A stretch of 64,000 nt of DNA from an uncultured cyanobacterium. Its GTDB lineage: Bacteria; Cyanobacteriota; Cyanobacteriia; Cyanobacteriales; Cyanobacteriaceae. The notes under the pieces were generated by a model. That model did not search any database, was not told the DNA's origin, and saw only the letters and a program-made list of their open reading frames with translations. Positions within the stretch are counted from its first letter, which is position 1; each line of letters begins with the position of its first letter. Below are positions 32,312-48,603 of this stretch, piece by piece. Location: positions 502,416 to 566,415 of the forward strand of contig CAVQBA010000007.1 of the NCBI GenBank assembly GCA_963710605.1, read 5' to 3'. The position numbers and the translations under genes were made by a program.

Positions 32312-32943
32312 TTAGAAAAGAAGATCGATCGTTATTTCCGACTGTATTACTTTTTCAGGATCGTCATCCCATTTTCGGGGATTATTAATAATATATTGAC
32401 GAATATTATCTAATTGTTTTTGGTCACGAATAATTGATTCATAATAATTTTTTTGCCAAACACGAATATTGCGATCGACACAAATACTTTTAATTTGTCT
32501 GGTGACGGCAGACTTAAAACCCGAAACAAACGTCGAAAGCGATTTCGGTTTACGTTGCCAACCCGACTGTAGGGGTGCAAGCGGTCAGAACCCGCTCAGG
32601 AGCGTAAGACGCAAGGGAACGCTGACCAAGACAGGTTTGCACCCTGATTATCTTTATCCTGATGAAGATTTCCATTATTATCAATCACAACAATCCCATG
32701 AATATGATTAGGCATCACAACCCATTCGTCAAATTCAATTTCTTTTCTGATTTCACTTGAGTTTAACCATTCTTCCACAACCAAATTACCTATTTGATTA
32801 CGAATCATTTTTTCTTGAATAATTTCACCAAACAGACATTGTTTTTGGTAGGTACAAATAGTGACAAAATAATATCCAGACAGTGAATAATCATAGTTTG
32901 GTAAACGTATCGATCGACGATGATGATAATCTTGCAAATTCAT
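32312..32943 (-). pseudogene. REP-associated tyrosine transposase (RAYT/TnpA-REP, Y1 HUH), interrupted
   Basis: HHRRSIRLPNYDYS..YFVTICT and HUH motif MPNHIHGI. After the insert come RKPKSLSTFVSGFKSAVT, WQKNYYESIIR and IRQYIINNP (catalytic Tyr). Removing 53 nt gives a 192-aa ORF. Confidence 0.92.
32581..32632 (+). mobile_element. 52-nt structured mini-element inserted in a REP inside the RAYT gene
   Basis: GCGGTCAGAACCCGCTCAGGAGCGTAAGACGCAAGGGAACGCTGACCAAGAC splits GTAGGGGTGCAA / GGTTTGCACCCT. Two related copies lie at 48107-48209. Confidence 0.85.
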
Positions 32944-33130
32944 TATTTTACTCTCGATTAAGCATAAGCAAAAATTATATAATAGAAATTAAAGTTAAGT
33001 AAATCATGTAAAGTCTGTATTTTATTGCTTTACTTAAATATTAATCGTAATTAAAAATACCAAATATAGATCGATCAATCTAATTTCTTGCTACGATGAA
33101 GCATTAAATAAATAATTTAATAGTCAAGCG

Positions 33131-33976
33131 ATGGTTAATCTTAAAAGTAAATTAAGTTGGACAAATAAAATCGACAAACTGATGTTTGTTTTCGCTAGTT
33201 TGTATCTAATCACTACCTTAGGTTGGTTATGGAAACAACAACAACAATCCCAGATGTCAGCTAATACGATCGTTACTGAAGAAAACATTACTACATCCAC
33301 TGATATAGCATCTGATAATAATCAAGCTAGCGAATTACAACCATTGATACCCTTACCGACAATAGACGAAACATCGAACAACACTTTAATTGATTTAGCC
33401 AAAATCTCTCAGACAACAAATGCTACTCCGATTAATCTTCCGCCACCGTTACCACCACAACCCACCACTAATATTGTCGAAAATTTATCCCCTGTTGAAA
33501 TAATCATTGAAGAAAAACCGCCAGCAAAAACAACCAAAAAAGTCTCATCACCTATTGCTAAGACTACCTCATCAACATCGCCTCAGAAAGTAAAAAAAGA
33601 AGTATCACCAAAAACTGTTTCTGCCCCCAAAAAACTTGCTCAAGTACCCACCATCGACAGTTTGCAATCATCAATTCAACAAGAATCGAAAGTTCAGCAA
33701 CAATCAACGGTTAATACTACTTCAGAATCTAAAACTGAAACGATTACGACAAATAACTTTAAACAATTAGATTATCAATACAGTTTAGTCGGTGTAGTAC
33801 AATTACCCGAAGCTGAAAATTTTGCTTTGTTCAAGATAAATAGTTTAACCGAAAAAATATCTGTTGGGGCAGAAATTGGTACAAGTGGTTGGGTTTTGAT
33901 GGGAGTCAACGGCACGCAAGCCACTATTAGCCGTCAAAATAAATCTCTCAATATTCGGGTAGGAGAAACTTTTTAA
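33131..33976 (+). CDS. Hypothetical membrane-anchored protein (Pro/Thr-rich linker, small C-terminal beta domain)
   Basis: N-terminal TM. C-terminal LVGVVQL...ALFKIN...VGAEIGTSGWVL...IRVGETF is reminiscent of PilP/GspC-type domains. Confidence 0.75.
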   Translation: MVNLKSKLSWTNKIDKLMFVFASLYLITTLGWLWKQQQQSQMSANTIVTEENITTSTDIASDNNQASELQPLIPLPTIDETSNNTLIDLAKISQTTNATPINLPPPLPPQPTTNIVENLSPVEIIIEEKPPAKTTKKVSSPIAKTTSSTSPQKVKKEVSPKTVSAPKKLAQVPTIDSLQSSIQQESKVQQQSTVNTTSESKTETITTNNFKQLDYQYSLVGVVQLPEAENFALFKINSLTEKISVGAEIGTSGWVLMGVNGTQATISRQNKSLNIRVGETF

Positions 33977-34114
33977 TCGATAGTTAGATGATAAGCTAAT
34001 TTTTTTGGGGATTTAACTAGTTAAACATTATTAATTAAAGGTATATTGAAAACAAGAAGCGATCGTGCTTATCATTGAATATTAACTACTATTTATTTAT
34101 TTATAATTAATATT

Positions 34115-34663
34115 ATGGGCTTATTTGAAGATTTTGGAACTTTCTTAGAATCTCGTTTAGATGAATTTTTACAAAGTAATCCTGAGCTAAATTTAACACT
34201 TTTAGGTCAAGAAATTAAACAACAAAAAAAAGATACTTTACAACTAATTTCTAATTTAGAGTCACAGCAAAAAAACTTAGAAAGCAAAATTGTCTCTCTA
34301 GGTCAAGAAATTTCTGGTTGGCATAGTCGAATAGAAAAAGCTAAACAAGGACAAAGATTTGATTTGGCTCAAGAAGCAGAGAAAAGACAAGCATCTTTAC
34401 TAAAAGACGGTAATCTTACTTGGCAAAAAATGGAAGAAGTCAAACAGAAAAATGTCCAAGCCAAAAAATTAATGGTTACCTTAGAAGAAAAACAAAGAGA
34501 GCTTAATTTGAAGATGGAACAACTTAAAAAAGAAACGAAAACTTATTCAGCACCAAATAAAACTGCTACTAATAAATATACTCCTGATAATGATTTAGAA
34601 ATTAAATTCCAACAATGGGAAGTAGAACAAGAATTACAAAAAATGAAAGAAAATTTATCTTAA
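34115..34663 (+). CDS. TIGR04376-like coiled-coil protein (PspA-related)
   Basis: MGLFEDFGTFLESRLDEFLQSNPEL...WHSRIEKAK..RFDLAQEAEKR...DLEIKFQQWE. Confidence 0.8.
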   Translation: MGLFEDFGTFLESRLDEFLQSNPELNLTLLGQEIKQQKKDTLQLISNLESQQKNLESKIVSLGQEISGWHSRIEKAKQGQRFDLAQEAEKRQASLLKDGNLTWQKMEEVKQKNVQAKKLMVTLEEKQRELNLKMEQLKKETKTYSAPNKTATNKYTPDNDLEIKFQQWEVEQELQKMKENLS

Positions 34664-34840
34664 AATAATACAAAAAATCAGTTTAATTCTCTTGAAAAAA
34701 GAATAAGTAAAAGAATAAAAATCTTCAAATAATCACAAGCTTTTAACGATAATTTGTTTATTTTTTAATCTTAATAGGGCGATAAAACGCCCATATTATT
34801 TATTTTTTTTAATAATTATGAAATATCGTGAATTGAACTT

Positions 34841-35320
34841 TTATGACATTTTACCGATAATTTTTAGCACAATTTGCATACCACTTACAGCTTGCCAACC
34901 AAAAACTAATAACATACTCATATTAATGCCCACATGACTTAATCTGGCTAAATCATTACCTTTTTTCATGTAAGGAACTAATGAAGCAGAAACAGCTACC
35001 ATAGACATCATTCCTAAGCCAGCAAGTAGGTGAGGTCCGACAAATAATTTACCGTTGTTAATGTAGGTAGCTGCCATACCACCAACTGTACCTAAGACAA
35101 CCAAAGCTAAAAAAATTGAGCCAACTTGATGATGACGCTCTTTGAAATTGCCTTTGATTAATTCTTTTCTGGTTTCTTTATCTGTCTCTGGTACACGAAT
35201 TTTTTTAGCTTTAAGACCTAAATATAACGCATATATAGCCATACCAAATAATACCCACATCAAAATTGGATGGGTAAATTGTGACCATGTTTTAATCGAT
35301 TCGGGAATTTCAAAATTCAT
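34841..35320 (-). CDS. DUF4079-family membrane protein
   Basis: HPILMWVL..YALYLG, HHQVGS, NGKLFVGPHLLAGLGM, ARLSH. Confidence 0.85.
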   Translation of the reverse strand: MNFEIPESIKTWSQFTHPILMWVLFGMAIYALYLGLKAKKIRVPETDKETRKELIKGNFKERHHQVGSIFLALVVLGTVGGMAATYINNGKLFVGPHLLAGLGMMSMVAVSASLVPYMKKGNDLARLSHVGINMSMLLVFGWQAVSGMQIVLKIIGKMS

Positions 35321-35646
35321 TTTTATCTTATCCTATGATGAGCAAAAATTCAGATAACTTTACACAATAATATATCATTTAACAGTGCCAAGAGTGCCAA
35401 GAGTGAACAATTAACAATAAATAATTAACAGTAAATACTCCTGACTCCTGAAATTCTGAATTCTTATTTAATTCTTAATTATTACCCATCGTGAATTAAC
35501 AATACATTTAAACTACTTTATGTTGATTTGTGTAGCTCTCAATTAGAGAAAAAAAAGTAGAAGTAGAAGCAACCGTAATGCACAGAATCACAAGATTGTG
35601 TCACAATCAAAAGAAGAAATAAATAAGCACGATGTAGGAATAGAAG

Positions 35647-36333
35647 ATGAATTCACCAATTCAAGCGGTACAAGCACCCTATAGAGGAGATGCTTCATAT
35701 CGTACACCACCACCTGATTTACCATCTTTACTGTTAAAAGAGAGAATTGTTTATTTAGGTTTACCCCTTGTATCTTCTGATGAATATAAAGATCAATTAG
35801 GGGTAGATGTAACTGAATTGATTATCGCTCAATTATTATACTTACAATTTGACGATCCTGAAAAACCAATTTTTCTTTATATTAATTCTACAGGTACATC
35901 GTGGTATGGTGGAGATGCGATCGGTTTTGAAACAGAAGCCTTTGCTATTTGCGATACGATTAGCTACATAAAACCTCCGGTACATACTATCTGTTTAGGT
36001 CAAGCAATGGGTACAGCGGCGATGATTCTTGCTTCTGGTTCAAAAGGCTGTAGAGCAAGTTTACCCCATGCAACTATTATTCTTAATCAAGCCCGACAAG
36101 GAGCGCAAGGACAGGCTACAGATATTCAAATTCGGGCAAGAGAAGTCATTGCGAATAAAAAAATGATGATTAATATACTCTCGGAAAAAACTGGACAAGC
36201 ACCAGAACAAATTGAGAAAGATACCGATCGTATGTTTTATCTTAATCCTGAACAAGCAAAAGAATACGGTTTAATTGACAAAATTTTAGAAAGTACTACG
36301 CAATTACCTGTACCTGTACCTGGTGTTAGATAA
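35647..36333 (+). CDS. clpR: Non-catalytic Clp protease subunit ClpR
   Basis: RTPPPDLPSLLLKERIVYLG. The catalytic Ser and His are replaced (GQAMGTAA; ILNQ). Confidence 0.95.
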   Translation: MNSPIQAVQAPYRGDASYRTPPPDLPSLLLKERIVYLGLPLVSSDEYKDQLGVDVTELIIAQLLYLQFDDPEKPIFLYINSTGTSWYGGDAIGFETEAFAICDTISYIKPPVHTICLGQAMGTAAMILASGSKGCRASLPHATIILNQARQGAQGQATDIQIRAREVIANKKMMINILSEKTGQAPEQIEKDTDRMFYLNPEQAKEYGLIDKILESTTQLPVPVPGVR

Positions 36334-36403
36334 CATTTGCATTTTACACCATTAAATTACTTTACCTTTTCACTAAATTTATCTTACTGAGGAAATAAAT
36401 AAA

Positions 36404-37003
36404 ATGCCTATTGGAGTACCAAGAGTACCATATCAATTACCCGGACAAGCATACAGCGACTGGGTTAATATTTACGATCGTCTTTATCGAGAAAGAATTA
36501 TCTTTCTAGGAAGAGGAGTAAATGACGGTATCGCCAATCAAATTATTGCCGTAATGCTCTATCTTGATTCAGAAGATAACACCAAACCAATTTATCTTTA
36601 CATCAACTCTCCAGGTGGTTCAGTCACCGCCGGTTTGGCTATCTATGACACTATACAACACATTAAATCTGACGTTGTTACCATTTGTGTCGGTTTAGCC
36701 GCTTCTATGGGTGCATTCTTACTCACTTCTGGAACGAAAGGTAAACGTTTGGCATTACCTCATTCTCGGATTATGATTCACCAACCTTTAGGTGGTGTAC
36801 AAGGGCGACGTCAAGCAACTGATATTGAAATTGAAGCTAAAGAAATTATTCGGATTAAAGGTGACTTGAACCAAATGATGGCTCATCATACAGGTCAAAC
36901 GATCGAAAAAATTGAAAAAGATACCGATCGTGATTACTTTATGTCTGCTCATGAAGCTAAAGAATATGGTCTTATTGATAAAGTGATTGAAGATAGAGTT
37001 TAG
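36404..37003 (+). CDS. clpP: ATP-dependent Clp protease proteolytic subunit (ClpP3 type)
   Basis: [33 protein letters not shown]. Paired with clpR. Confidence 0.97.
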
Positions 37004-37480
37004 TCTAGTTGTCATTTTAATCATAGATTGCTTATAAATCCCCCTAATCTTCTTTAGGGGGCTATTTTATTGGAGATATTTAAAAGGATTAGAAAAGTTT
37101 TTTGTTAGCTAATCATCAGCTTGTTTTTGCTTTTACCATTAAGTTTTTTACTATTTCAGAACTATCACGAATAACCCGAATGCAAGTACGAGTAATATGA
37201 GCAAATAAATACGATCGTCTTTCTAATTCTTATCATAAAAGGTTAAAGATATTTAAGATTATCAGAGAAAAATATCGTCACAAAAGACGAGAAGATAAAA
37301 GAAGATATGCGATTAATACTAAGAATATACAATTACGAAAGATAATTTTTATAACATTAAGATACAGCGATCGATCGATATTTGTAAATGGTCAGTATAA
37401 TCTACATATAGCGAGTATAATTTGGCAATAAATCTTTTGTTTAAGTACCGTTAATAAACTGATAATAAAAGCATAATTTT

Positions 37481-39046
37481 ATGAGTAAACTATTACTATT
37501 AGGTTTAGATGGTGGTGATATTAACTATATTCGATCTAGAGCATCTGTCTTACCTTGTTTTGCCAGTAAATTAAAGTCCGATCGATTATTAATTTTAGAC
37601 ACACCCAAAGCATTAAGTGGTTCGGTATGGCCAACATTTTATAACGGTGTTAATCCCGCAGTGCATGGTGTTTATCAACATTTGGTTTGGGATGCTCAAA
37701 ACATGGCGATTAGATTGATTGGAAATGATTGGTGTTACAATCGACCTTTTTGGCAAGAGATAGAAGACAAATTAAATAAAAAAGCAATGGTGTTAGATAT
37801 TCCCTACAGCTTTGCTAACACCCTTAATCAAGGCGTACAAATTATCGATTGGGCTAGTCACGGACAAACTTTTCCTACTAATTGTAATTGTCCACAAGCT
37901 CAAGCTATTTTAAAGAAAATTGGCAAAAGCCCCATTAAAAGAGAAACTCCAATTGAAAAAAACCCTCATCAACTACAAAAGATCGAACAAAGTATCTTGA
38001 AAAGTGCTCAGTTGAAAGGAAAATTAATTCAAGAATTAGCAACCAAGATCGATTACGATTTGTTTATTGCCGTTTTTGCGGAAACCCATCGAGGTGGACA
38101 CGCATTTTTTGGTGATGAAGACGAACAAGACTTTAATGGTAATATCACACCTAATTTAAGAATATATCAGGCAGTCGATCGAGCTATTGCCGAAATTATT
38201 GCTAATGTGGATGACGATACTCAAGTAGTTATATTTTCCGTTCATGGTATGGCAAGAGATTATTCTCAAGGACATATTACTCGCCCCGTGATGAAGAAAA
38301 TTAATGAAGTATTTTTAGAAAAATATTGTCAGATTCCTCCTCGCCCTCAAGTCAAAGCTAATAGTATTGTGCCTTATTTACGAAAAGTTGTTCCTTCTCA
38401 GTTGCAATACTTTGTGGGTGCTAATTCCCCTGATTTTGTCAGACGATGGGTAGTAGAAAAAGAAATTATTGGTGGTTTGGATTGGAGTCGAACCCCTTGC
38501 TTTGTCTTACGATCGGATATTAGAACAGAATTAAGATACAATTTAATCGATCGAGAATCTCAAGGTTTTTTAGAAGCTAATAGCACATTACATAAGCAAT
38601 ACACTAATTTTTGTCGAGAAGTACTTTTTAGTATAGAAGATGCTGAAACTCAAGAGAAACTAGTTGATGATTTAATTGATACTCGTCAAGAGTTTTCAGG
38701 TCAAAATAGCGATCGTTTACCCGATTTAGTGATTTGTTGGCAACGGGGTAAACCTCCAGTCAGATCGGTTTATTCACCACTAATAGGGCGTATTGAAGTC
38801 AAACCTTCAGGAGCTAGAACAGGTGATCACCCTGACACAGATAGTGGTTTTATTATTATTCCTCCTGAATTAGAAAACCTCTCTCCTTTAAATAAAGTTG
38901 AAGATTTTGCTGGTTTTTGCCATAATTTTTTCAATAAGGACATTTCCCTGAAAAAAAGTACCAACCCCTCTCCAGCACTTTTACCTCACTCCCAGCCCCT
39001 CTCCTCTCAGGAGAGGGGAGTTAGAATTAAAAAAAACTTATGGTAA
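37481..39046 (+). CDS. Alkaline phosphatase superfamily (NPP-like) protein
   Basis: LLLLGLDGG, SGSVWPTFYNG.NPAVHG, ETHRGGH, FSVHGM, LDWSRT, PDLVICW, TGDH. Confidence 0.85.
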   Translation: MSKLLLLGLDGGDINYIRSRASVLPCFASKLKSDRLLILDTPKALSGSVWPTFYNGVNPAVHGVYQHLVWDAQNMAIRLIGNDWCYNRPFWQEIEDKLNKKAMVLDIPYSFANTLNQGVQIIDWASHGQTFPTNCNCPQAQAILKKIGKSPIKRETPIEKNPHQLQKIEQSILKSAQLKGKLIQELATKIDYDLFIAVFAETHRGGHAFFGDEDEQDFNGNITPNLRIYQAVDRAIAEIIANVDDDTQVVIFSVHGMARDYSQGHITRPVMKKINEVFLEKYCQIPPRPQVKANSIVPYLRKVVPSQLQYFVGANSPDFVRRWVVEKEIIGGLDWSRTPCFVLRSDIRTELRYNLIDRESQGFLEANSTLHKQYTNFCREVLFSIEDAETQEKLVDDLIDTRQEFSGQNSDRLPDLVICWQRGKPPVRSVYSPLIGRIEVKPSGARTGDHPDTDSGFIIIPPELENLSPLNKVEDFAGFCHNFFNKDISLKKSTNPSPALLPHSQPLSSQERGVRIKKNLW

Positions 39047-39151
39047 TCACTTCTGGTATTTTTATTAGTAGAAATTACCCTAACTTTTAACTTTTAACTT
39101 TATTTTGCCTCTTGCCTCTTTTCACTAGTAAACTTAGATGCGAACTAGCTT

Positions 39152-40195
39152 ATGATTTATAAAAATCCGCTACGTTACCTGCAAAGTATTTATCGTCAAT
39201 TTTTACCCCTTACTCAAACCGTTGGAGGAGTAATTGACGATCGACAATCGGTAGAAATGGCTTACAGTACTCTTGGTAGAACTAATCTAAAAATTAGTGT
39301 CATGTCTTTAGGCTGTGGTGGACATAGTCGTTTAGGATTACGATCGGGAAAAAGTAAAAAGGAAGTAAAAGTATTAATAAAACGGGCTTTGGATTTAGGG
39401 ATTAATTGTATTGACACTGCTAACGATTATGGTACAGAACTTTTTATTGGTAATTTTATCCAAGATATACCCAGAGATAAATTGATTCTTTCTAGTAAGA
39501 TTCGTAGTCGCAATTTATTTAAACAGCAGATTAGTGAAAAAATGTTGACTAAATCTCTCGAAAAATCCTTACGAGATTTACAAACTGATTATATAGATAT
39601 TTATCATTTAGCTTCGGTTTCTCCTCAAGACTACAGTTATGTGCAACAAGAATTAATCCCCTGTTTACAAAAGCACCAACAAGCAGGAAAAATACGTTAT
39701 TTGGGTATCACCGAACAATTTAACCGAGATACTAGTCATCAAATGCTCCAATTAGCATTAAAAGATGATTGTTGGGATGTAATGATGGTAGGTTTCAATC
39801 TTTTTAATCAATCTGCTCGTGATTTAGTTTTTCCCCTTACTCAAGACAAAAATATTGGTGTGATGGTGATGTATGCAGTGCGTAAAGCCTTAAAATCAGC
39901 AGAGCAATTTCAAGAAGCAGTCAAAACGTTACAAGAATCAGGGAATTTAACCACCGATAAAACAACTCAAGAAATTCTGGGGGAGTTACTGGGTAATTCT
40001 CATCAAACTATCCAAGACATAGCTTATCGTTATTGCCGTCATCAACAAGGAGTCAACACCGTACTTTCTGGCACTGGTAGTTTAACTCACTTAGAAGAAA
40101 ATATCCTTTCTTTAAATCGCCCCTGTTTACCATCGAATAAATTAGAAACGATCGAGGATTTATTTCGTAATGTTAAAGATTTTTCGGGAAATTAA
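39152..40195 (+). CDS. Aldo/keto reductase
   Basis: LGRTNLKISVMSLG, GINCIDTANDYG, SLRDLQTDYIDIYHL, GKIRYLGIT. Confidence 0.92.
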   Translation: MIYKNPLRYLQSIYRQFLPLTQTVGGVIDDRQSVEMAYSTLGRTNLKISVMSLGCGGHSRLGLRSGKSKKEVKVLIKRALDLGINCIDTANDYGTELFIGNFIQDIPRDKLILSSKIRSRNLFKQQISEKMLTKSLEKSLRDLQTDYIDIYHLASVSPQDYSYVQQELIPCLQKHQQAGKIRYLGITEQFNRDTSHQMLQLALKDDCWDVMMVGFNLFNQSARDLVFPLTQDKNIGVMVMYAVRKALKSAEQFQEAVKTLQESGNLTTDKTTQEILGELLGNSHQTIQDIAYRYCRHQQGVNTVLSGTGSLTHLEENILSLNRPCLPSNKLETIEDLFRNVKDFSGN

Positions 40196-40393
40196 ACACA
40201 TCGAGAGAAAGTGAATTACCATAAACAGATTAAAGTGTTTCAAGTCTGTCATCAAGAGCGAAAACTAAACCGAAAAAATTCTGTAAATTCAATCGTTCTG
40301 TTCTATTGAGATAAAAACATTAAAGGATTATTGACCGAAGAAGCGATCGTTTCAAAAATTTCAGATATTGTTTATTCAATTTAAAGATTAATT

Positions 40394-41878
40394 ATGGTCA
40401 CAGCAAATGAGCATCGTGTTTTAATGTTAGGTCTTGATTCAGCCGAAATTAGCTTTATAAAAAAGCATTTAGATCAATTTCCTAATCTATATCAGCTAAG
40501 TCAACAAGGATGTTTTCAAGGTTTAAAAAATTACTCTGATTATATGAGTGCCTGTGTTTGGTCAACATTTTACACGGGTTTGCCTCCAGGGGAGCATGGA
40601 TTTTATTACCCTATGCAATGGAATCCTGAAACTATGCAACTACGTAGAGTTTTACAAGATTGGTTTTATCTTGAGCCTTTTTGGTACGAACTAGCTAGAG
40701 AAGGTTATCCTGTCACCGCCGTGGATATACAAACCCAGTTTCCTAGTCGTACTCCTTTAGGTAAAGAGATTACTAATTGGGGTTCGCAATCGTATTTAGG
40801 AGGTAGTAGCAATCCCCCTGAGTTAATTAGGGAAGTCAATAAAAAATTTGGTAAGCATCCTATGGGGCATGATGTGGTGCTACCAAAAAATGAGCGACAA
40901 AGTAAAAAAATACTCCAAGAAATTTTTGCAGGATTGCAGACACGGGGACAATTATTCAGCTACATGATGACTGAGACTGATTGGAAGTTATTTTTAGGTG
41001 TCTTTACTGAAACCCATCGAGGGGGACATTATTTTTGGCCTTACGATGAAGATGATACCCGTTTATTATCGATTGTCCAAGCTGTTGATGCGGAAATTGG
41101 TAAGTTACTCAAGTTAGTGGATATGGATAAAACTACAGTCATAATTTTTTCTCTTCATGGTATGAGTGAAAACAGAACTCAAATGCACTTTTTACCCCAA
41201 ATAATGGATAGGATTAACATTGCTTTTTCTCATGAAGACAAAACCTATCCAGATAACCATCAAAATTCTTTAACTTCTAAAGGTTTGATGCGAACTCTGC
41301 GAGAAAATTTACCCACAAATATTCAATATTTGATTGCCGATAACACTCCCGACTCAGTTCGAGATTGGGTAGTCAACCGTCAGTTTATTGGTGCTTTAGA
41401 TTGGAGTAAAACCAGAGGATTTGTCATGCCTTCGGGAAGTGAAGGTTATATTAGACTGAATTTGAAAGGGCGAGAGCGTGATGGTTGTTTAACCTATGGA
41501 AGTGAGGAATATCAACAATATTGTGATTTTATTGTCAAATGTTTTAATTCCCTGAAAGTTGATGAAACTGGAGAATCTGTAGTTGAGAAAATTACTTTTT
41601 CCCAAGACACTTTTGCGGGTGCTAAATCTCACTTACTTCCAGATATTATTGTTAGTTGGAAAGGAATTGAGCCTGTGGCAAGATTAAAATCTGATATTCT
41701 GGGTACGATGAATGGAGAATTACAAACAGGGCGAGGTGGAAATCACTGGGGCGATGAAGGTTTTATTCTCACAGGTGGTAACGTTACCGAGGATGCACAG
41801 AAGTTAAACAATATTGCACAGTTAGCTGGTTTTGTTAAAAATTTAGTTCGTAATAATTCTGTTTCAGTTAAAGTTTAA
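40394..41878 (+). CDS. Alkaline phosphatase superfamily (NPP-like) protein, paralog of 37481-39046
   Basis: VLMLGLDSA, SACVWSTFYTG.PPGEHG, ETHRGGH, FSLHGM, LDWSKT, IRLNLKGRE, PDIIVSW, GGNH. Confidence 0.85.
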   Translation: MVTANEHRVLMLGLDSAEISFIKKHLDQFPNLYQLSQQGCFQGLKNYSDYMSACVWSTFYTGLPPGEHGFYYPMQWNPETMQLRRVLQDWFYLEPFWYELAREGYPVTAVDIQTQFPSRTPLGKEITNWGSQSYLGGSSNPPELIREVNKKFGKHPMGHDVVLPKNERQSKKILQEIFAGLQTRGQLFSYMMTETDWKLFLGVFTETHRGGHYFWPYDEDDTRLLSIVQAVDAEIGKLLKLVDMDKTTVIIFSLHGMSENRTQMHFLPQIMDRINIAFSHEDKTYPDNHQNSLTSKGLMRTLRENLPTNIQYLIADNTPDSVRDWVVNRQFIGALDWSKTRGFVMPSGSEGYIRLNLKGRERDGCLTYGSEEYQQYCDFIVKCFNSLKVDETGESVVEKITFSQDTFAGAKSHLLPDIIVSWKGIEPVARLKSDILGTMNGELQTGRGGNHWGDEGFILTGGNVTEDAQKLNNIAQLAGFVKNLVRNNSVSVKV

Positions 41879-41960
41879 CCTTATTATTATTAATAAAGGG
41901 TAAAGGTAATTATACGATCGAAATGTCTGATACTCATTCAAATAAGACTAGATTAAGTGA

Positions 41961-42125
41961 TATAGTCATTTCAATTAAGATTAAGACAGTAAGAACAATA
42001 CTGAAACCAAAGTATTAAACCCGCCTTGTTGAACTGTCGTGCAAGGCTAATATCCTGTTCGTTTAATAAATTAAACTTAAATTTAGATCCACAAAAGTGT
42101 CTCATTTTTATTTGAAACAACTATA
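41961..42125. mobile_element. 165-bp MITE with IS630/ISY100-like terminal inverted repeats
   Basis: Left end TATAGTCATTTCAATTAAGATTAAGACA versus reverse complement of the right end TATAGTTGTTTCAAATAAAAATGAGACA. TA-flanked. A diverged second copy starts at 51970. Confidence 0.8.
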
Positions 42126-42168
42126 TATATCAGCAATCAAACGTTTGCCCCTTGCACGAGTAATATAG

Positions 42169-43128
42169 ATGAATACAAAAATTCGCCGTCAACTATTATT
42201 ATTAGCCGTTTGTTTTGCGATCGCTTTAGTTGTTTATTCTGCTATCAAGACATGGGCAGGAATTACTGATTTTGGTGCTTTATTCGATCGTTTTTCTGGT
42301 TACACTCTGACCAAAATACTTTTATTTTCTATTTGTGCTTATACTTGTCGCTTCATTGCTTGGCATCTTAATTTAGTTTATTTAGGAGCAAAAGTACCGA
42401 TTATTTACGATTTGCAGTGTTATCTAGCAGGATACTTATTTTTACCAACTCCTGCTCGTGCTGGTACTTCTATTCGTATATTTTACTTACGTCAATATGT
42501 TCCTTATTCTATTAGTTTTATTGGCTTAATTTTAGAGCGTATTAATGATTTAGTTGCAACTATTATTTTTGCTTTATTTCTGGTTAAAAATATTTACTAT
42601 TGGATTTTAATTATCCCAATTTTGTTTCTATTATTTAAAAGCTCAAAGATAAAAAATAATAATAACTTAACTCTAAAATTATCAAAGTATATAGAAAAAG
42701 TGACACCTAATTTCTTAAAAGAAAAAGTAAGTAATTTATTGTCAGGAATAAAAGAAACAATGAAAACGAAACCTGCTCTTTTATCTTCACCTGCTTTCAT
42801 TTCATCACAAATACTATTTTGTTTGGCTTATATCAGCTATGGTTTAGTTGTTCATACAGCTTTAACTAACTTTGATATTAATATTCCTTATTTGCAGGTG
42901 ATTAGTATTTATAGTGCTAGTGTTTTCGTTAGTTCAATTTCTTTTCTTCCTGTTGGTTTAGGTGGTGCAGAAGTTATGATGATTATTTTTCTTTCTCTTT
43001 GGGGTGTGACAAAAGTCGATGCTGTCGCTGTTACTCTCATCTCTCGATTATGTACAATTTGGTTTATAGTTTTTGTTGGGTTAATCTCGACTTTTACTTT
43101 ATTTATTAGTCGAAAAAAAGTTAATTAA
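42169..43128 (+). CDS. Lysylphosphatidylglycerol synthase TM / flippase-like (UPF0104) membrane protein
   Basis: CRFIAW, TPARAG..IR, LERIND, LPVGLGGAE, LISRLCTIW. Confidence 0.85.
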   Translation: MNTKIRRQLLLLAVCFAIALVVYSAIKTWAGITDFGALFDRFSGYTLTKILLFSICAYTCRFIAWHLNLVYLGAKVPIIYDLQCYLAGYLFLPTPARAGTSIRIFYLRQYVPYSISFIGLILERINDLVATIIFALFLVKNIYYWILIIPILFLLFKSSKIKNNNNLTLKLSKYIEKVTPNFLKEKVSNLLSGIKETMKTKPALLSSPAFISSQILFCLAYISYGLVVHTALTNFDINIPYLQVISIYSASVFVSSISFLPVGLGGAEVMMIIFLSLWGVTKVDAVAVTLISRLCTIWFIVFVGLISTFTLFISRKKVN

Positions 43129-43139
43129 TCTCGTAATAT

Positions 43140-44822
43140 ATGCTTTATTTTTTAGTTATTTGGTTATTATTATTATTAATATGTTGTCCCCTTGGCTTTT
43201 TCGTTATCAATCTTTGTCAAGCAGATAGTATTACTCGTATTGGCGATCGATTTATCCTCTCGATTTGGTTGGGAATTATTATTATTTCCTTATCTAATAT
43301 GGCTGTAGTATTATTAATTCCGTTATCGCCATTAGTAGGATTATTAATCGCTATTTTTTGGCTAACGATCGCATTTTTCGATCGAAAAACTCGCCGAGAT
43401 TTACTTAATTTAAAAAGTTTTCTATCAACAAAAATTATCCTTCAAGGTTTAGCTGTCTCTATTGCCGTAGCCGCTTTCACTAGTCAAGGTATTATTTGGT
43501 TTGATACAGGTTTATATCATTTAAATACAATGCGATGGATGGGTGAATATGGTATCGTCAAAGGGCTTAGTTTGATTCAACCTCATTTAGGTTTTACTTC
43601 TTCTTGGTTTGCTTTTTCCGCTCCTTTAGTCTGGAATTGGCAATCACAAAATATCGGGGCTGTGAGTAATGGTTTTATTTTTTTGATTTTAATTTTTTGG
43701 GGTTTAATTTCTCTTTCTCAGGGGATTAAAAAAACAGGTATTATTGCTGATTTTTTTGCTTTTTGCTTTTCAGGTTCAATTTTTTTATTGTATTTAATTG
43801 ATAATGTTAATGGCTTTACTATTGTTTCTTTTTCTAACGATGTTTTGGTAACTTTTCTTTCGGGAGTTTTGGTTTGGTATTTGCTTATTATTTATCAAAA
43901 TCTTAATGAACAAAATCAAGATTCATTTCGGCAAAAACTGATTATTATTATTTTGGCTTGTGGTGCATGGAGTGTTAAATTAACAGCTATGCCTTTGTTG
44001 TTTTCTATTATCATCTTGTTTGCTTATTTTTACGGGAAAAAACAGATAAATATTTCGCAATTTTTAATCGCTTTAGCACTTACTTTTATTTTAGTATCTC
44101 CTACCTCAGCTTATGCTATTAAAACATCTGGATGTCCTATTTATCCTTCCCAGAGCTTGTGTTTAGATGTAGCTTGGACAAGAAGTAAGGACAGAGTAAA
44201 TGCTCAAATGAATATTGTCTCAGATGTAAAACAAGGTGATAGCGATTGAAAAAAACAAAATATTATTTATAAAGCAATAAAAGTAAGATTAAACAGAATA
44301 AAATCATCTATTAAACATCAACTAACTTATTTAATTTATGCTATTTCTATTCTTTTAGGTATATATATATATATTAAGCCCAAAAATAAATCAGACAAAT
44401 ATATTGTAAGTATTACTTTTTTTTGTCTGACTTTTATTATGCTTTTAAATCCGTTAATTCGTTTTGGACTAGGTTATTTTATGACAATTCCAAGTCTTTT
44501 TTCTGGCTACACTTTTCTAACATTTAAACAAAGGAATAAATATTATAATTATTTTCCTAAAGTTGTTTATGTAGTAACATTAATAATGCTATTTTGGAGA
44601 ACAGGAAATAATATTGACGATCGAGTATTTTTACCAGCTAAGTTGCCTCTAGTAGAGTTAAAATCAGAACAAATAAATAATGTAAACTATTATTATCCCG
44701 ATAATTGGACTTCTCAATGTTGGTCGGCAAAATTACCTTGTAGTAATACACCTATGAAAATTAATATTGAACTAATATCTCCTAAAAAAGGTATTAAAGG
44801 AGGTTTTCAATGGAAAAATTAA
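43140..44822 (+). pseudogene. Polytopic membrane protein (LIC_10190-like, GT-C-like) with one in-frame TGA at 44247-44249
   Basis: FDTGLYH..RW..EYGIVKGL, LGFTSSWF, SVKLT, SGCPIYP. Hand translation shows the same frame stays open from 44250 into the 44439-44822 ORF (PLIRFG, QCWSAKLPC). Confidence 0.75.
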
Positions 44823-44933
44823 ATTTTAGGTAAAAGCAAAAGTTAATTGATAAATTAAATACTATACTATGCTAAATAAAAAGGAATAAAATTATTAATA
44901 GCTGACTTTGTTCTCTATTTTAATTATAATTAA

Positions 44934-45587
44934 TTGACTCAAAATATAAATAAACACAATTCGACGATCGAAGTTGAAAATTTGGGTGTAGTTGATTACA
45001 CCACTACTTGGGAATATCAAAAACAATTAGTTCAAGCTAGATTAGATAATCCGCAATTATCAGATAAATTATTAATAGTTGAGCATCCTGCGGTTTATAC
45101 CCTAGGGACAGGCTCAACTCTTGATAATCTTAAATTCGACCCGAAAACTTTTAAAGGAGAAATACACCGCATCGAACGGGGTGGAGAAGTAACATATCAT
45201 TGTCTGGGGCAAGTTATCGTTTACCCAATTCTTAATTTACATCGTTACCAAACAGATTTACATTGGTATTTAAGACAATTAGAAGAAGTTGTTATTCAGC
45301 TATTAGCAAGTTACGGTATTGTTGGGAGTAGAATTGATGGCTTGACTGGTGTATGGGTAGAAGACAAAAAAATAGCCGCCATCGGCATCAAGGTTAAAAG
45401 ATGGATTACGATGCACGGTTTGGCTTTAAATGTTTGTTGTGATTTGTCTGGGTTTAATCAGATTATTCCTTGTGGAATTAAAGATAAATCAGTAACCAGT
45501 CTCGATCGATATATTACAGGTATTGAGATAGAAACTGTTAAGCAAGATTTAATCGATCGTTTTCTTGAGGTTTTCGAGAATAAATAA
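44934..45587 (+). CDS. lipB: Lipoyl(octanoyl) transferase
   Basis: EHPAVYTLG, ERGGEVTYH, TGVWV..KKIAAIG, ITMHGLALN, IIPCG. Confidence 0.97.
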   Translation: MTQNINKHNSTIEVENLGVVDYTTTWEYQKQLVQARLDNPQLSDKLLIVEHPAVYTLGTGSTLDNLKFDPKTFKGEIHRIERGGEVTYHCLGQVIVYPILNLHRYQTDLHWYLRQLEEVVIQLLASYGIVGSRIDGLTGVWVEDKKIAAIGIKVKRWITMHGLALNVCCDLSGFNQIIPCGIKDKSVTSLDRYITGIEIETVKQDLIDRFLEVFENK

Positions 45588-45616
45588 TTGATGATTAAAA
45601 GCACTACTAACTATTA

Positions 45617-45638
45617 AGGTGGGCATTGCCCACCCTAC
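45617..45638 (-). repeat. GTAG REP between convergent lipB and recA
   Basis: AGGTGGGCATTGCCCACCCTAC is the reverse complement of the copy at 3593. Confidence 0.8.
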
Positions 45639-45646
45639 TTCTTTAA

Positions 45647-46747
45647 TTAATCATCATTGTAATTTTCATCTGCATCATCATCATGATCATTATCATGATC
45701 AGAATTAGTCTTAGCATCATCAGAATTTCCTTGCCCGTTATTGATTGCTAATTCAGCTTTGACTTTGTCTTCAATTACTTGAGCAAACTCAGCGTTTTCC
45801 TCTAAATATTTAATTGCATTATCTCTACCTTGAGCAATGTTATCGCCTTCATAGCTATACCATGCACCTTTACGTTTAATAATGTCAGTTTTTTCGGCTA
45901 AATCGATAATACAACCAACACTAGAAATACCTGTACCAAAAATAATATCGAATTCAGCAATTCTAAACGGAGGTGCAACTTTGTTTTTCGCTACTTTTAC
46001 TTTTGCTCTGATACCATATTCTCCTTCAGTACCTTTTTTTAAGGTTTGGATACGACGAATATCTAAACGTACAGAAGCATAAAATTTTAAAGCTGTACCA
46101 CCTGTTGTTACTTCAGGACTACCATAACTAATCCCAATTTTTTGTCTTAATTGGTTAAGGAAGATAACCGTCGCTCCTGATTTACCGATATTACCGGCAA
46201 TTTTACGTAAGGCTTTACTCATTAAACGAGCTTGCAAACCTACTTGCATATCCCCCATTTCTCCTTCTATCTCTGCACGAGGCACAAGGGCGGCAACTGA
46301 ATCCACTACGACGATATCAACTGCGGCACTACGTACTAGTTGATCGACAATTTCTAAGGCTGATTCACCATTGTCTGGCTGGGCGATTAATAAGTTATCT
46401 ATATCGACTCCTAATGCTTTAGAATAGGTAGGATCGAGGGCGTGTTCGGCATCGACAAATGCGGCTACTCCACCTACTTTTTGAACTTCAGCGATCGCAT
46501 GAAGTGCTAATGTAGTTTTACCCGAACTTTCAGGACCATAAATTTCAATGACACGACCTTTAGGAAGTCCTCCACCAAGAGCTAAATCTAAAGTTAAAGC
46601 ACCACTAGAAATGGTCTCGATTCTCATTTTTGTGGCATCACCAAGACGCATAATTGAACCTTTCCCGAAGTTACGTTCAATTTGGTTTAAAACTAGATTT
46701 AACGCCTTTTCTTTGTCTGGGTTTTGAGCCATTGTAGTTGTCGCCAT
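45647..46747 (-). CDS. recA: Recombinase RecA
   Basis: [46 protein letters not shown]. Confidence 0.99.
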
Positions 46748-46816
46748 AATACCGATCTTATTTTAAAGTTCTCTATTCTATTTTAATCTAATTCTCTAAT
46801 TTACTAAAGACCTTTT

Positions 46817-46832
46817 TAGTACACGAGTATTA
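46817..46832 (-). promoter_or_regulatory. Cyanobacterial LexA box upstream of recA
   Basis: TAGTACACGAGTATTA is one mismatch from RGTAC-N3-DGTWCB and lies 70 nt upstream of the recA start. Confidence 0.7.
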
Positions 46833-46896
46833 ATATATTAACGCATTTAAATGGAAATGAGACAAGTTAGTCAAAAAAAGTTACAAAGGGAAATTA

Positions 46897-46948
46897 ACTC
46901 CTTACTCCTTACTTCTTACTTCTTACTCCTTACTTCTTACTCCTTACT
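46897..46948. repeat. Heptamer tandem repeat (ACTYCTT)n, about 7 units
   Basis: actccttactccttacttcttacttcttactccttacttcttactccttact. Confidence 0.85.
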
Positions 46949-46953
46949 TGATG

Positions 46954-47589
46954 TTAAGTATTGAAAGATAAAAATTCGATCGCACTTCTAATCCATTCTT
47001 CAACGTTCGGATTTTTTAGCAGTAAATCATCTTGACTAATCACTGCAACTGCTTGTTGAATTTCACTATCACTATAACCGAGGGCAAGTAAAGTCATGTC
47101 TAAATCAGCCATGATGTCTTTATTTGGTAATCCTTTGCTTTGGGGTAAATCAATACCGATACTAGTACGCCATTTAGATAATTTGGTTTTTAATTCTAAG
47201 GCAATTCTTTCGGCGGTTTTTGCCCCAATACCGGGGGCTTTAGATAATAAACGGATATTACCCGTAACGATCGCACTTACTAATTCTTCTATGCCTAAAG
47301 TATCGACTAAAGCGATCGCACTTTGTGAGCCAACACCAGAAACAGTAATCAATCTTCTAAATAAATCTCTTTCAGCAGTTGAGGAAAAACCATACAATAT
47401 TTGTTTATCATCTCTAACTTGAAAATCGGTAAAAATTTTAACTTGTATCTCTTCATTTATAGTTAAATCCTTTGCTAATCGACCAGGAATTTGTACTTCA
47501 TAACCAATATTATTAACTTCTAAAATAACTAGATTGCGGTTATTTTGACTAACTAAGTTAATGACAATACCTTTTAAATAATTAATCAT
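46954..47589 (-). CDS. ruvA: Holliday junction branch migration protein RuvA
   Basis: MINYLKG..LEVNNIGYEV, LYGF...ERDLFRRLITVSGVG, PGIGAKTAERIALELK, LALGY. Confidence 0.97.
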   Translation of the reverse strand: MINYLKGIVINLVSQNNRNLVILEVNNIGYEVQIPGRLAKDLTINEEIQVKIFTDFQVRDDKQILYGFSSTAERDLFRRLITVSGVGSQSAIALVDTLGIEELVSAIVTGNIRLLSKAPGIGAKTAERIALELKTKLSKWRTSIGIDLPQSKGLPNKDIMADLDMTLLALGYSDSEIQQAVAVISQDDLLLKNPNVEEWIRSAIEFLSFNT

Positions 47590-47675
47590 AAAAAATAGCT
47601 TAAATAAAAATAGACGTTGCATCGCAACGCCTTAGGGAAACTTTCCAACAAATAATTAAACTTGTGAATCTATTT

Positions 47676-47999
47676 TTAAGAAGCTAAAGCAACTTCAATC
47701 ATCTGTTGTAACTCACCAGACTGGTACATTTCAATTAAAATATCGCTACCACCAACAAACTCACCATTTACATAAACTTGAGGAATAGTTGGCCAGTTAG
47801 AATATTCTTTGATACCTTGACGAACATCTGGATCTGATAGTACATCAAAACCTGTAAAAGGAACACCAAATGAATTTATAATTTGTACCACGTTGTTAGA
47901 AAAACCACATTGAGGCATTAACTTAGTGCCTTTCATAAAAACGACAATACGATCGCTTTTGACAATTTCATCAATACGTTGTTTTACTTCTGGAGTCAT
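47676..47999 (-). CDS. grxD: Monothiol glutaredoxin Grx4
   Basis: [32 protein letters not shown]. Confidence 0.97.
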
Positions 48000-48106
48000 A
48001 ATCTATATTTACTTCTATTTTATGATAATTATTTACTTACTAGTTTAGCGAGGACATGAAAAAAAGGACACTTGTGCAAAGGGCAAGAGTAAGTTGATAG
48101 TTGATA

Positions 48107-48209
48107 GCGGTGGAATCCCGCTCAGGAGCGTAAGACGCAAGCGGTCAGAACCCGCGACGACGGCAAGTCGCAAGGGAAGGCTGACCAAGACGGGAACGTC
48201 CACCAAGAC
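48107..48209 (+). mobile_element. Nested pair of mini-elements (outer 48107-48140+48192-48209; inner 48141-48191) inside a (GTTGATA)n repeat
   Basis: Removing the 51-nt inner copy leaves a 52-nt element colinear with 32581-32632. Removing that restores the heptamer tandem repeat exactly. Confidence 0.88.
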
Positions 48210-48348
48210 GTTGATAGTTGATAGTTGATAATGGCTTTGTTGACAATTAACAATATTTCTTACTCATTACTCATTACTCATTACTTGTTACTCGTTACTC
48301 ATTCCCTAACACCTAACTAATACCTTAAGAGTTTAAACCCTTAGTTTG

Positions 48349-48603
48349 TTAATTGTTTTGTTTTGACCATGTTGTAGGAGTAAATGTCTTTAAAGCTAAA
48401 GCGTGAATTGCTTCAGAATTAAATTCGCTTTGTAATGCACCATAGACTAACTGATGTTGTTTGACCTTGTTTTTACCTTCAAATTCAGCGGAGACAACGA
48501 TCGCCTCTAAATGGTCGCCTCCTCCTGTCAAATCGGTTACAACTACCTGTGCATCAGGGATTTGACTTTGAATAGTTTCTTTGACTTTTTCTAAACTTAC
48601 CAT
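48349..48603 (-). CDS. bolA: BolA family protein
   Basis: [41 protein letters not shown]. Adjacent to grxD. Probable start at 48603. Confidence 0.95.

Follow-up and report, generated by a model that had tools for sequence, protein, structure and literature searches.

We report here on a family of very small, GC-rich hairpin elements, three copies of which (A, B and C) lie within a 64,000-nucleotide stretch of contig 7 (C7) of the genome of an uncultured cyanobacterium. This whole stretch, hereafter the window, corresponds to G000:C7:502416-566415, where G000 denotes the studied genome. Copy A separates the two arms of a hairpin resembling a repetitive extragenic palindrome (REP) inside a broken transposase-like gene, and copy B splits an array of heptamer repeats and itself carries copy C (Table 1).

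The three copies were noticed in an initial annotation made from the letters alone, and the coordinates and sequences given there matched in all three cases, as did the placement of C inside B after the word GCAA. All three start with GCGGT and end with CCAAGAC, and they are GC-rich (∼60-70%) in AT-rich DNA, the 2-kb bins of the window having 25-41% GC. Copies A and B differ at seven positions, six of which make up three compensating stem pairs (GGTCAG/CTGACC versus GGTGGA/TCCACC). Copy B is recovered as a full-length profile match once C has been excised, in the second of the excision rounds described below, and the sequence of copy C occurs identically at three further loci of the genome. 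The nested unit of B and C is predicted to fold into two hairpins, one inside the other (−21.1 kcal/mol, z = −2.6); the folding z-scores of single copies are modest, between −1.1 and −2.6, so that it is covariation, and not folding energy, that supports the fold. Some 40 nt downstream of the nest, at 48251-48300, (ACTCATT)n and variants of it form another heptamer array.

Table 1. Copies A, B and C and the features that they interrupt (positions are those of the window).
Feature	Position	Strand	Basis or remark
RAYT-like gene (Y1/HUH, IS200-like), frame broken by the REP-borne copy A	32312..32943	-	ORF list, frame restoration
Left arm of REP-like hairpin, GTAGGGGTGCAA, target of copy A	32569..32580	+	hairpin family in genome
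Copy A, 52-nt variant, inner region GCTCAGGAGCGTAAGACGC	32581..32632	+	R1 match G000:C7:534996-535047, E=1.1e-12
Additional A, 3′ junction of copy A	32633	+	base of the inserted unit or 1-nt duplication; absent in empty REPs (...GCAA|GGT...)
Right arm of the same REP-like hairpin, GGTTTGCACCC	32634..32644	+	hairpin family in genome
(GTTGATA)x2, left part of the array split by copy B	48093..48106	+	array phase carries on past the insert
Copy B, 5′ part (host element), with GCAA at its end	48107..48140	+	sequence
Copy C, 51 nt, nested in B at GCAA^GGGAA	48141..48191	+	R1 match G000:C7:550556-550606, E=7.9e-16
Copy B, 3′ part, GGGAACGTCCACCAAGAC	48192..48209	+	stem bases pair with 48109-48114
(GTTGATA)x3, right part of the array split by copy B	48210..48230	+	sequence

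The element family and its fold

The family to which these copies belong is real, consists of very small mobile hairpins, is widespread in cyanobacteria and has apparently not been described before. The assembly from which the window is taken comprises 3.93 Mb in 7 contigs, has 33% GC and is 85% complete by marker genes; as is typical of cyanobacteria, it contains the HIP1 palindrome (GCGATCGC) 708 times, where about 9.5 occurrences are expected from base composition. A census with an nhmmer profile, followed by iterative excision of full-length matches over three rounds, recovered 56 full-length elements at 39 loci of this genome (39, 15 and 2 elements in successive rounds), the later recoveries revealing nests that are two and three deep. 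The elements are 49-54 nt long, mostly 50-52 nt. A covariance model (R1) has 47 matches in the same genome at E≤0.001, the best with an E value of 3e-17, so that the scan proposed in the initial annotation yields ample further copies at home, and there are hundreds across the cyanobacteria.

The distribution among other genomes is patchy. With R1 the family is found in nine of 41 relatives, the studied genome included, some having 24 or 12 copies and some a single one, and the remaining 32 have none; a phylum-wide sample gave five positive genomes of 151 at E≤1e-5, all five belonging to the same order, and the most-sampled family of that order had no R1 match in 17 genomes. A pattern scan of one genome per species returned at least 118 stretches, 80 of which were listed and checked with the model. 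Among these 80 there are 62 model-confirmed matches in 52 loci, and confirmation was obtained for 52 of 57 loci with cyanobacterial titles and for none of 23 from other phyla. The confirmed record titles, among the matches listed, are Okeania, Dapis, Xenococcus, Xenococcaceae, Waterburya, Hyella, Pleurocapsa, Prochloraceae, Crocosphaera and Baaleninema, together with metagenome-assembled genomes. Viral contigs gave 24 pattern matches, none confirmed by the model, and blastn found no match in plasmids. This patchy spread over distant cyanobacterial genera marks horizontal traffic. Copies 74-104 nt long are present at seven loci of other genera (L139, L143, L136, L173, L181, L108 and L178), where extra short hairpins lie in or near the apical loop.

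The element is a single GC-rich extended hairpin. A 5′ overhang of 2 nt (GC) precedes a 6-bp outer stem, which is followed by a middle stem of CCCG/CGGG type with a 2-nt AA bulge and by an inner stem of 4-5 bp closed by a 7-8-nt loop; the 3′ tail, AAGA plus C or G and usually followed by A, is conserved and single-stranded. That a single long-range hairpin extends over the entire element is supported by covariation. In an alignment of 28 distinct un-nested copies of the genome, in which the outer stem (columns 3-8 with 45-50), the middle stem and the inner stem were tested, 96.7% of pair cells are paired, compared with 86.1% in shuffled alignments, none of 500 shuffles reaching as high a value, although the copies are related by descent and the shuffle counts are thus not probabilities. 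Changes on both sides are seen in seven of the 14 pairs, and controls in which the 3′ partner was slid by one to three columns are only 24-40% paired. An alignment of 57 distinct copies from other genera, which was fitted to the model and so leans to the model's structure, has 96.3% of its pair cells paired and double changes in nine of 14 pairs. Because the middle stem (CCCG with C..GGG) hardly varies, covariation provides no test of that stem itself. The contention that it is the fold that is conserved, made from the compensating changes between A and B, is thus strongly borne out by the two larger alignments.

Neither sequence databases nor the literature supplied a name for the family. Rfam gave no family match over positions 32400-48400 of the window at E values up to 1, its ribozymes and intron domains included, and no description of the element family was present in the literature searched, element-sequence words included. 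The closest described counterparts are the small dispersed repeats SDR1-8 of Nostoc punctiforme and its relatives, which are likewise tiny (<100 nt), dispersed, without genes and argued to be mobile by a mechanism that is unknown. They reportedly form hairpins, nest mutually and occur in heptamer arrays. Papers citing Elhai et al. (2008, Genome Res 18:1484) put SDRs at 'some 20 bp' and SDR5 at 21 nt, one such paper placing SDR5 insertions at an exact position inside HIP1 and another stating that SDR-like repeats were not found outside the Nostocaceae. By these accounts, which give us the SDRs by description and not by sequence, SDRs are repeats of about 20-27 nt in Nostocaceae, whereas the present element is roughly twice that size and its host genera are non-Nostocacean; the differences in size and host range argue against identity with an SDR. 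Other small GC-rich hairpins of AT-rich genomes, which lie inside genes and are in some cases maintained in frame and translated, or skipped, are the mobile GC-rich clusters and 'byp' elements known from yeast mitochondria and the Rickettsia palindromic elements, but their hosts and sequences are unrelated, and the copies described here are mostly intergenic, only some of those in genes being in frame. Being GC-rich hairpins in AT-rich spacers, they may be confused with terminators or small RNAs.

Targets, junctions and orientation

Very probably the elements have inserted many times and independently, in one orientation and at W^R sites (A or T before the insertion point, A or G after it), without terminal inverted repeats and with either no extra base or one extra A, their own AA bulge also being hit so that two- and three-deep nests arise. 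Four classes of target account for all but three of the 56 events. Heptamer arrays received 20, each array in one phase (ACTCCTT^ACTCCTT, GA[GC]AATT^GA.., GTTGATA^GTTGATA and GTTAAGA^GTTAAGA); 18 lie inside another copy, all at the same GCAA^GGGAA position at the AA bulge; nine are in the REP-like hairpin GTAGGGGTG[CT]AA^GG[TC]TT[GA]CACCC, and six in a second hairpin family, CCCTCTCC-TCGCAGGA^GAGGGG. Insertion into hairpins, heptamer repeats and one another, as noted from the three window copies, is therefore the general habit of the family. The narrower preference drawn from the same copies, A^G and often GCAA^G, holds in part: GCAA^G or GTAA^G is the commonest context, with 27 of 56 events (the 18 self-insertions and the nine in REPs), but the general rule is W^R.

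Empty counterparts of these targets are plentiful within the genome. About 40 REP-like hairpins read GGGGTG[CT]AA-GG[TC]-TT[GA]CACCC without an insert, and the element starts directly after 13 left arms, all in one orientation. The second hairpin family has 12 empty and six filled copies, many heptamer arrays are uninterrupted, and many elements have no guest. The empty sites rebuilt for the three window copies thus have paralogous counterparts, and an insertion sequence (IS) of IS1-like type in the relative G019 has an empty paralog as well. Outside the target itself the surroundings of the 39 loci have nothing in common, and the loci are therefore separate insertions and not duplicates of one larger repeat. 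The tally of filled against empty sites that had been suggested succeeds for such paralogous sites, but orthologous spacers are too diverged for an exact site: the grx-bolA spacer, which holds copies B and C, is 351 nt long here and 73-170 nt in eight relatives, where it has no array or element and has diverged too far for an exact orthologous empty site, and likewise none could be defined at the one locus compared between the studied genome and a genome of the same genus (G001).

Several features of the targets are worth recording in their own right. The REP-like family has about 53 copies in the genome, with GTAG before most of them. Members of the second family form a hairpin of 8 perfectly paired bp, CCCTCTCC-TCGCA-GGAGAGGG, and have G[CT]TGGGGGTGAGG after it (for example at C4:140066 and C6:261867). 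Heptamer arrays are strand-biased by contig: on contig C4 there are 9 plus and 3 minus ACTCCTT arrays and 4 plus and 14 minus GA[GC]AATT arrays, and on C7 3 plus and 9 minus ACTCCTT arrays. Several hosts that carry guests (e.g. C1:252203-252321 and C6:367922-367990) have a 3′ half that starts with ACCGAA, not GGGAA, and have lost the middle stem.

There is also an association between subfamily and target. Of 15 copies with a GCGAC inner hairpin, 13 are guests of another copy, and those of the GGTGGA/GCGTC type occur in heptamers (12) and REPs (5); the association has a permutation p < 1/5000, a value that would be inflated by composites of host plus guest moving as units.

The base preceding the element at 37 distinct sites of the studied genome is A (76%) or T (24%) and never G or C, and at 57 distinct sites of other genera it is A in 79%, T in 14%, G in 5% and C in 2%, that is, A or T at 37 of 37 and 53 of 57 sites. 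The base following it is A or G at all 94 sites, with G at 57% and A at 43% in the genome and A at 88% and G at 12% in the other genera. The 3′ end itself reads AAGAC at 32, AAGAA at 4 and AGGAC at 1 of the 37 sites, and AAGAG at 32, AAGAC at 18 and AAGAA at 5 of the 57, the other 2 differing, and AAGAT in the relative G002. The 5′ end, the internal insertion point and the orientation are all exact.

The absence of terminal inverted repeats is upheld, the ends GCGGT... and ...CCAAGAC not being inverted copies of each other. The further claim that there is no real target duplication needs qualification: never more than one A is involved, but the form is no extra base or one A, and the added A is the norm elsewhere, 42 of the 57 sites in other genera reading A|element|A. 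All six filled second-hairpin copies are element plus A relative to the empty form; in the IS1-like gene of G019 a run of seven A's in the empty paralog corresponds, in the filled copies, to four A's on either side of the element; and heptamer insertions after T have no extra base. Miniature inverted-repeat elements of DDE transposons, by contrast, have terminal inverted repeats and a duplication of at least 2 bp, and the element has neither, at most one A being added.

The 39 loci are oriented 26 plus and 13 minus, and relative to neighbouring open reading frames (ORFs) there is no preference, with 16 co-directional, 11 antisense, eight divergent and four convergent arrangements. The family represents clean, countable mobile DNA far under the usual size limit (50 nt with exact ends, a proven fold and dozens of filled and empty sites in one genome), and the question of how very small repeats move becomes directly testable.

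Copies inside genes

Copy A lies inside the RAYT-like (REP-associated tyrosine transposase-like) gene by way of that gene's REP hairpin. As anticipated, one base beyond the 52-nt element has to be taken out: it is removal of 53 nt (32581-32633) that restores a 192-aa RAYT-like frame. The N-terminal part of the product matches PF01797 weakly (E=4.3e-4, below the cut-off). A tblastn search finds two intact RAYT-like paralogs in the genome, which match NF047646 (REP-associated tyrosine transposase) with E values of 5e-19 and 3e-16, below the curated cut-off, and one of which passes the Pfam Y1_Tnp model (PF01797) at 26.9 bits. After removal of the element the REP hairpin within the coding sequence reads ...QGANLAPLQ..., a stretch absent from the two intact paralogs.

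In other transposase genes the targets are A-rich runs of lysine codons, in TnpB, IS1-like and IS701-like genes. All 12 copies of one relative (G002:C1, L071-L088) occupy the same site in IS701-like genes, which fall into two subfamilies only 79% alike, and the elements are nearly identical, one or two bases apart, a pattern that suggests repeated hits on a hot spot or gene conversion; these IS701-like copies are also frame-broken further downstream. Copies are borne by IS1-like genes of G019 and G031 and, in G022 and several named genera, by TnpB-like genes. Most copies of G019 and G002 are part of larger repeats, which are IS copies or else contain arrays and have flanks in common.

Within the studied genome a 51-nt variant is present in three TnpB copies, whose common block in alignment is only 471 nt. 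At C6:584008 an open TnpB frame of at least 423 aa runs through the element, giving a 17-residue insert between KGKK and GYPQF, and matches to OrfB_IS605 and to a Cas12f1-like TNB domain lie downstream in a sister TnpB copy. To judge from this reading frame, the element can ride as a translated in-frame insert. Since it breaks or lengthens genes (the RAYT-like gene in the window; TnpB, IS1-like and IS701-like genes elsewhere), it matters for annotation.

Candidate mechanisms and related systems

The element contains no ORF. No long version with the same ends is present in the genome, no pair of 5′ and 3′ halves enclosing a gene, and its non-autonomous nature, as first proposed, is supported on these grounds together with the lack of a recurrent neighbour gene. 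An autonomous parent was sought and rejected, there being no half pair around a gene, and the TnpB-borne copies sharing only the 471-nt block. We infer recognition of the folded single strand, be it DNA or RNA, by an enzyme acting in trans. Head-to-tail or circle junctions were also looked for in the genome and none were found, apart from two chance matches in unrelated sequence. A comparison of the carriers with transposase and reverse transcriptase families had been suggested as a way to find the enzyme, and while Y1_Tnp (PF01797) and RVT_1 (PF00078) do occur in every carrier, the comparison does not discriminate, as the two families are present in 36 and 37 of the 41 relatives overall.

Our tentative proposal, which we regard as quite possible, is that the moving form is a folded single strand of DNA. 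A trans-acting tyrosine enzyme of HUH type, of the Y1, IS200/IS605 TnpA or RAYT kind, would bind the hairpin and cut on both sides of it, and the excised hairpin would be joined to single-stranded target DNA on the 3′ side of an exposed A; such targets may be offered by hairpin loops and bulges, slipped tandem repeats and runs of A. HUH chemistry would leave no inverted repeats and no target duplication. We favour an enzyme of this class because the anatomy of ends and targets fits it, the targets are ones that are transiently single-stranded or folded, and a cut after A fits both the right end and the target. The right end together with the next base reads GAGA at 32 and GACA at 17 of the 57 sites in other genera (49 of 57 together), and these words and the targets AAAA, GCAA, AGAA and AACA fall into one purine-rich class ending in A, which fits a single cut rule for donor end and target. 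Strict orientation towards asymmetric targets fits such an enzyme too, all 13 filled REPs being in one orientation and all ACTCCTT-type arrays being hit in one phase. So does a strand bias on contig C4, where 10 of 11 loci point the same way over 1.3 Mb although the arrays and REPs there are on both strands; this bias is suggestive, but it was noticed post hoc, and replication arms are not assignable from GC skew and gene-strand counts, both of which are flat. The genome has 12 Y1_Tnp matches, RAYT-like genes among them.

Known transposons provide partial parallels. Elements of the IS200/IS605 group are hundreds of bases long and have separate left and right end hairpins and a fixed target of 4-5 nt. 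They and their miniature derivatives likewise lack terminal inverted repeats and target duplication (the element adding nothing or one A), insert in one orientation by a short word and with a strand bias, and have hairpin ends that are read as single-stranded DNA. The tetranucleotides before the present element vary, however (GCAA, AATT, AGGA, CCTT, AAAA, AGAA, AACA and others), the sole constraint being A or T as the final base. Rolling-circle transposons of the IS91 type and Helitrons, whose length runs to kilobases and which carry a gene for a Rep-type enzyme of their own, are generally known for insertion between two fixed nucleotide classes without duplication, a GC-rich hairpin a few bases short of the 3′ end, an imprecise 3′ terminus and the absence of inverted repeats, all of which recall the element.

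REPs and REPINs with their RAYTs (Y1 HUH enzymes) are short, GC-rich, non-autonomous hairpins with presumed single-strand handling, according to Bertels and Rainey (2011, PMC3116915). Here, by contrast, the REP-like hairpin is the target and not the element. The element lacks a 5′ tetranucleotide beside its stem, starting with GC and then the stem, and GTAG is part of the target REP; inverted doublets are absent, loci with several copies being nests in direct orientation; and, unlike REPs so far as that account describes them, the element has exact filled and empty sites and nests in itself.

Other observations weigh against a Y1-type enzyme acting on folded DNA. The element is one 50-nt hairpin where IS200/IS605 elements have two end hairpins, and its target is a loose W^R where theirs is fixed; its junctions slip by one base and no enzyme is linked to it. 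To our knowledge HUH transposition is exact, and a one-base slip, here seen in 3′ ends of C, CA, GA, TA or A, would be unusual for it. Around the 39 loci, out to 2.5 kb, there is no recurrent gene family, the presence of Y1_Tnp in carriers is uninformative for the reason given above, and the sole resident IS605-type element that can be delimited has unrelated end hairpins. Mismatches in the stems give no answer as to which strand folds (12 of G.T and 8 of A.C). At least six loci show a surplus of 3′ over 5′ halves, with the reverse at two or three loci; such halves could result from 5′-truncated insertion or from deletion between repeated GCAA words.

A route through RNA seems rather unlikely. 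The element would here be trimmed from longer RNAs and copied by a resident reverse transcriptase at nicks or gaps beside an A, which gives a better account of the variable last base with its optional A and of the truncated copies left as surplus 3′ halves. Enzymes of the right kind are abundant, with 18 RVT_1 matches in the genome and many group II intron proteins combining reverse transcriptase, maturase and HNH domains, and many apical loops of the element end in GNRA-like words (GTAA, GAAA, GCAA). RVT_1 is nevertheless as undiscriminating among the relatives as Y1_Tnp, there is no poly-A or other priming tail, and an RNA copy is not suggested by the indifference of the element to the sense of neighbouring genes. 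The failure to match any ribozyme or intron domain in Rfam weighs against the same route, and it separates the element from group II introns and ribozyme retroelements, no such domain being recognisable in its 50 nt. A cluster of five reverse transcriptase ORFs, also counted among the potential enzymes for this route, occupies 19 kb of contig C5 (C5:10500-29500, L223); all five have RVT_N and RVT_1, three also have GIIM, and two of these three have HNH in addition. Some of the ORFs are truncated, and tRNA-synthetase and glycosyltransferase genes lie amid the cluster.

That a DNA route without an HUH enzyme is responsible we consider unlikely. It would involve an unrecognised nuclease or recombinase that handles hairpins, or template switching by a polymerase into gaps, and it draws on the fact that no known transposase signature fits fully, on the one-base slop at the junctions and on the nature of the targets, which are DNA that stalls replication or folds (hairpins and tandem heptamers). 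Exactness of the 5′ end, insertion point and orientation speaks instead for sequence-specific cutting and not for accidental copying, and copies have no recurrent candidate gene beside them for this route either.

The 51-nt length of many gene-borne copies, equal to 17 codons, raises the further idea, compatible with any of the above, that the unit is taken out of the mRNA or bypassed by the ribosome, the host transposase staying functional. The unit is present in all 12 IS701-like copies of G002, and one TnpB frame is continuous through it; but the TnpB insert may simply be translated, with no need for removal, the G002 genes are broken downstream as well and need not be functional, copy A adds 53 nt and is out of frame, and the IS1-like copies of G019, as read from their sequence, have an in-frame stop in the loop, so that we give this idea very little chance. 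Equally improbable, and largely refuted, is an immobile element, a structured motif that would serve the cell as a terminator, small RNA or protein-binding site and would spread only through recombination and as a passenger of larger repeats, for although most copies of G019 and G002 do lie in larger repeats, the 39 loci have unrelated flanks and include interrupted coding sequence, nested copies are always at one internal position, and nearly identical elements occupy the same site in IS701-like subfamilies that are only 79% alike.

Returning to the proposal of folded DNA moved by a trans-acting enzyme, we note a more far-reaching version of it, which we hold to be doubtful: these might be the smallest self-defined transposable units known, one 50-nt hairpin sufficing for excision and target choice, through either an enzyme class new to transposition or a Y1 enzyme working on one hairpin, with the sequence of the element helping to pick the target, as the association between subfamily and target would suggest. 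If one enzyme inserts a 50-nt hairpin at a defined dinucleotide, a tool for inserting small cargo may be possible.

The genome also contains another mini-element family, with four copies in the regions C7:410066-410161, C1:220565-220711 and C4:1172020-1172100, which share a conserved 23-nt start word and end in ...CCCCCAAGACCACACTTTTCC. Three of the four copies are inside 50-nt elements, beside the GCAA site, so that several kinds of tiny element nest together.

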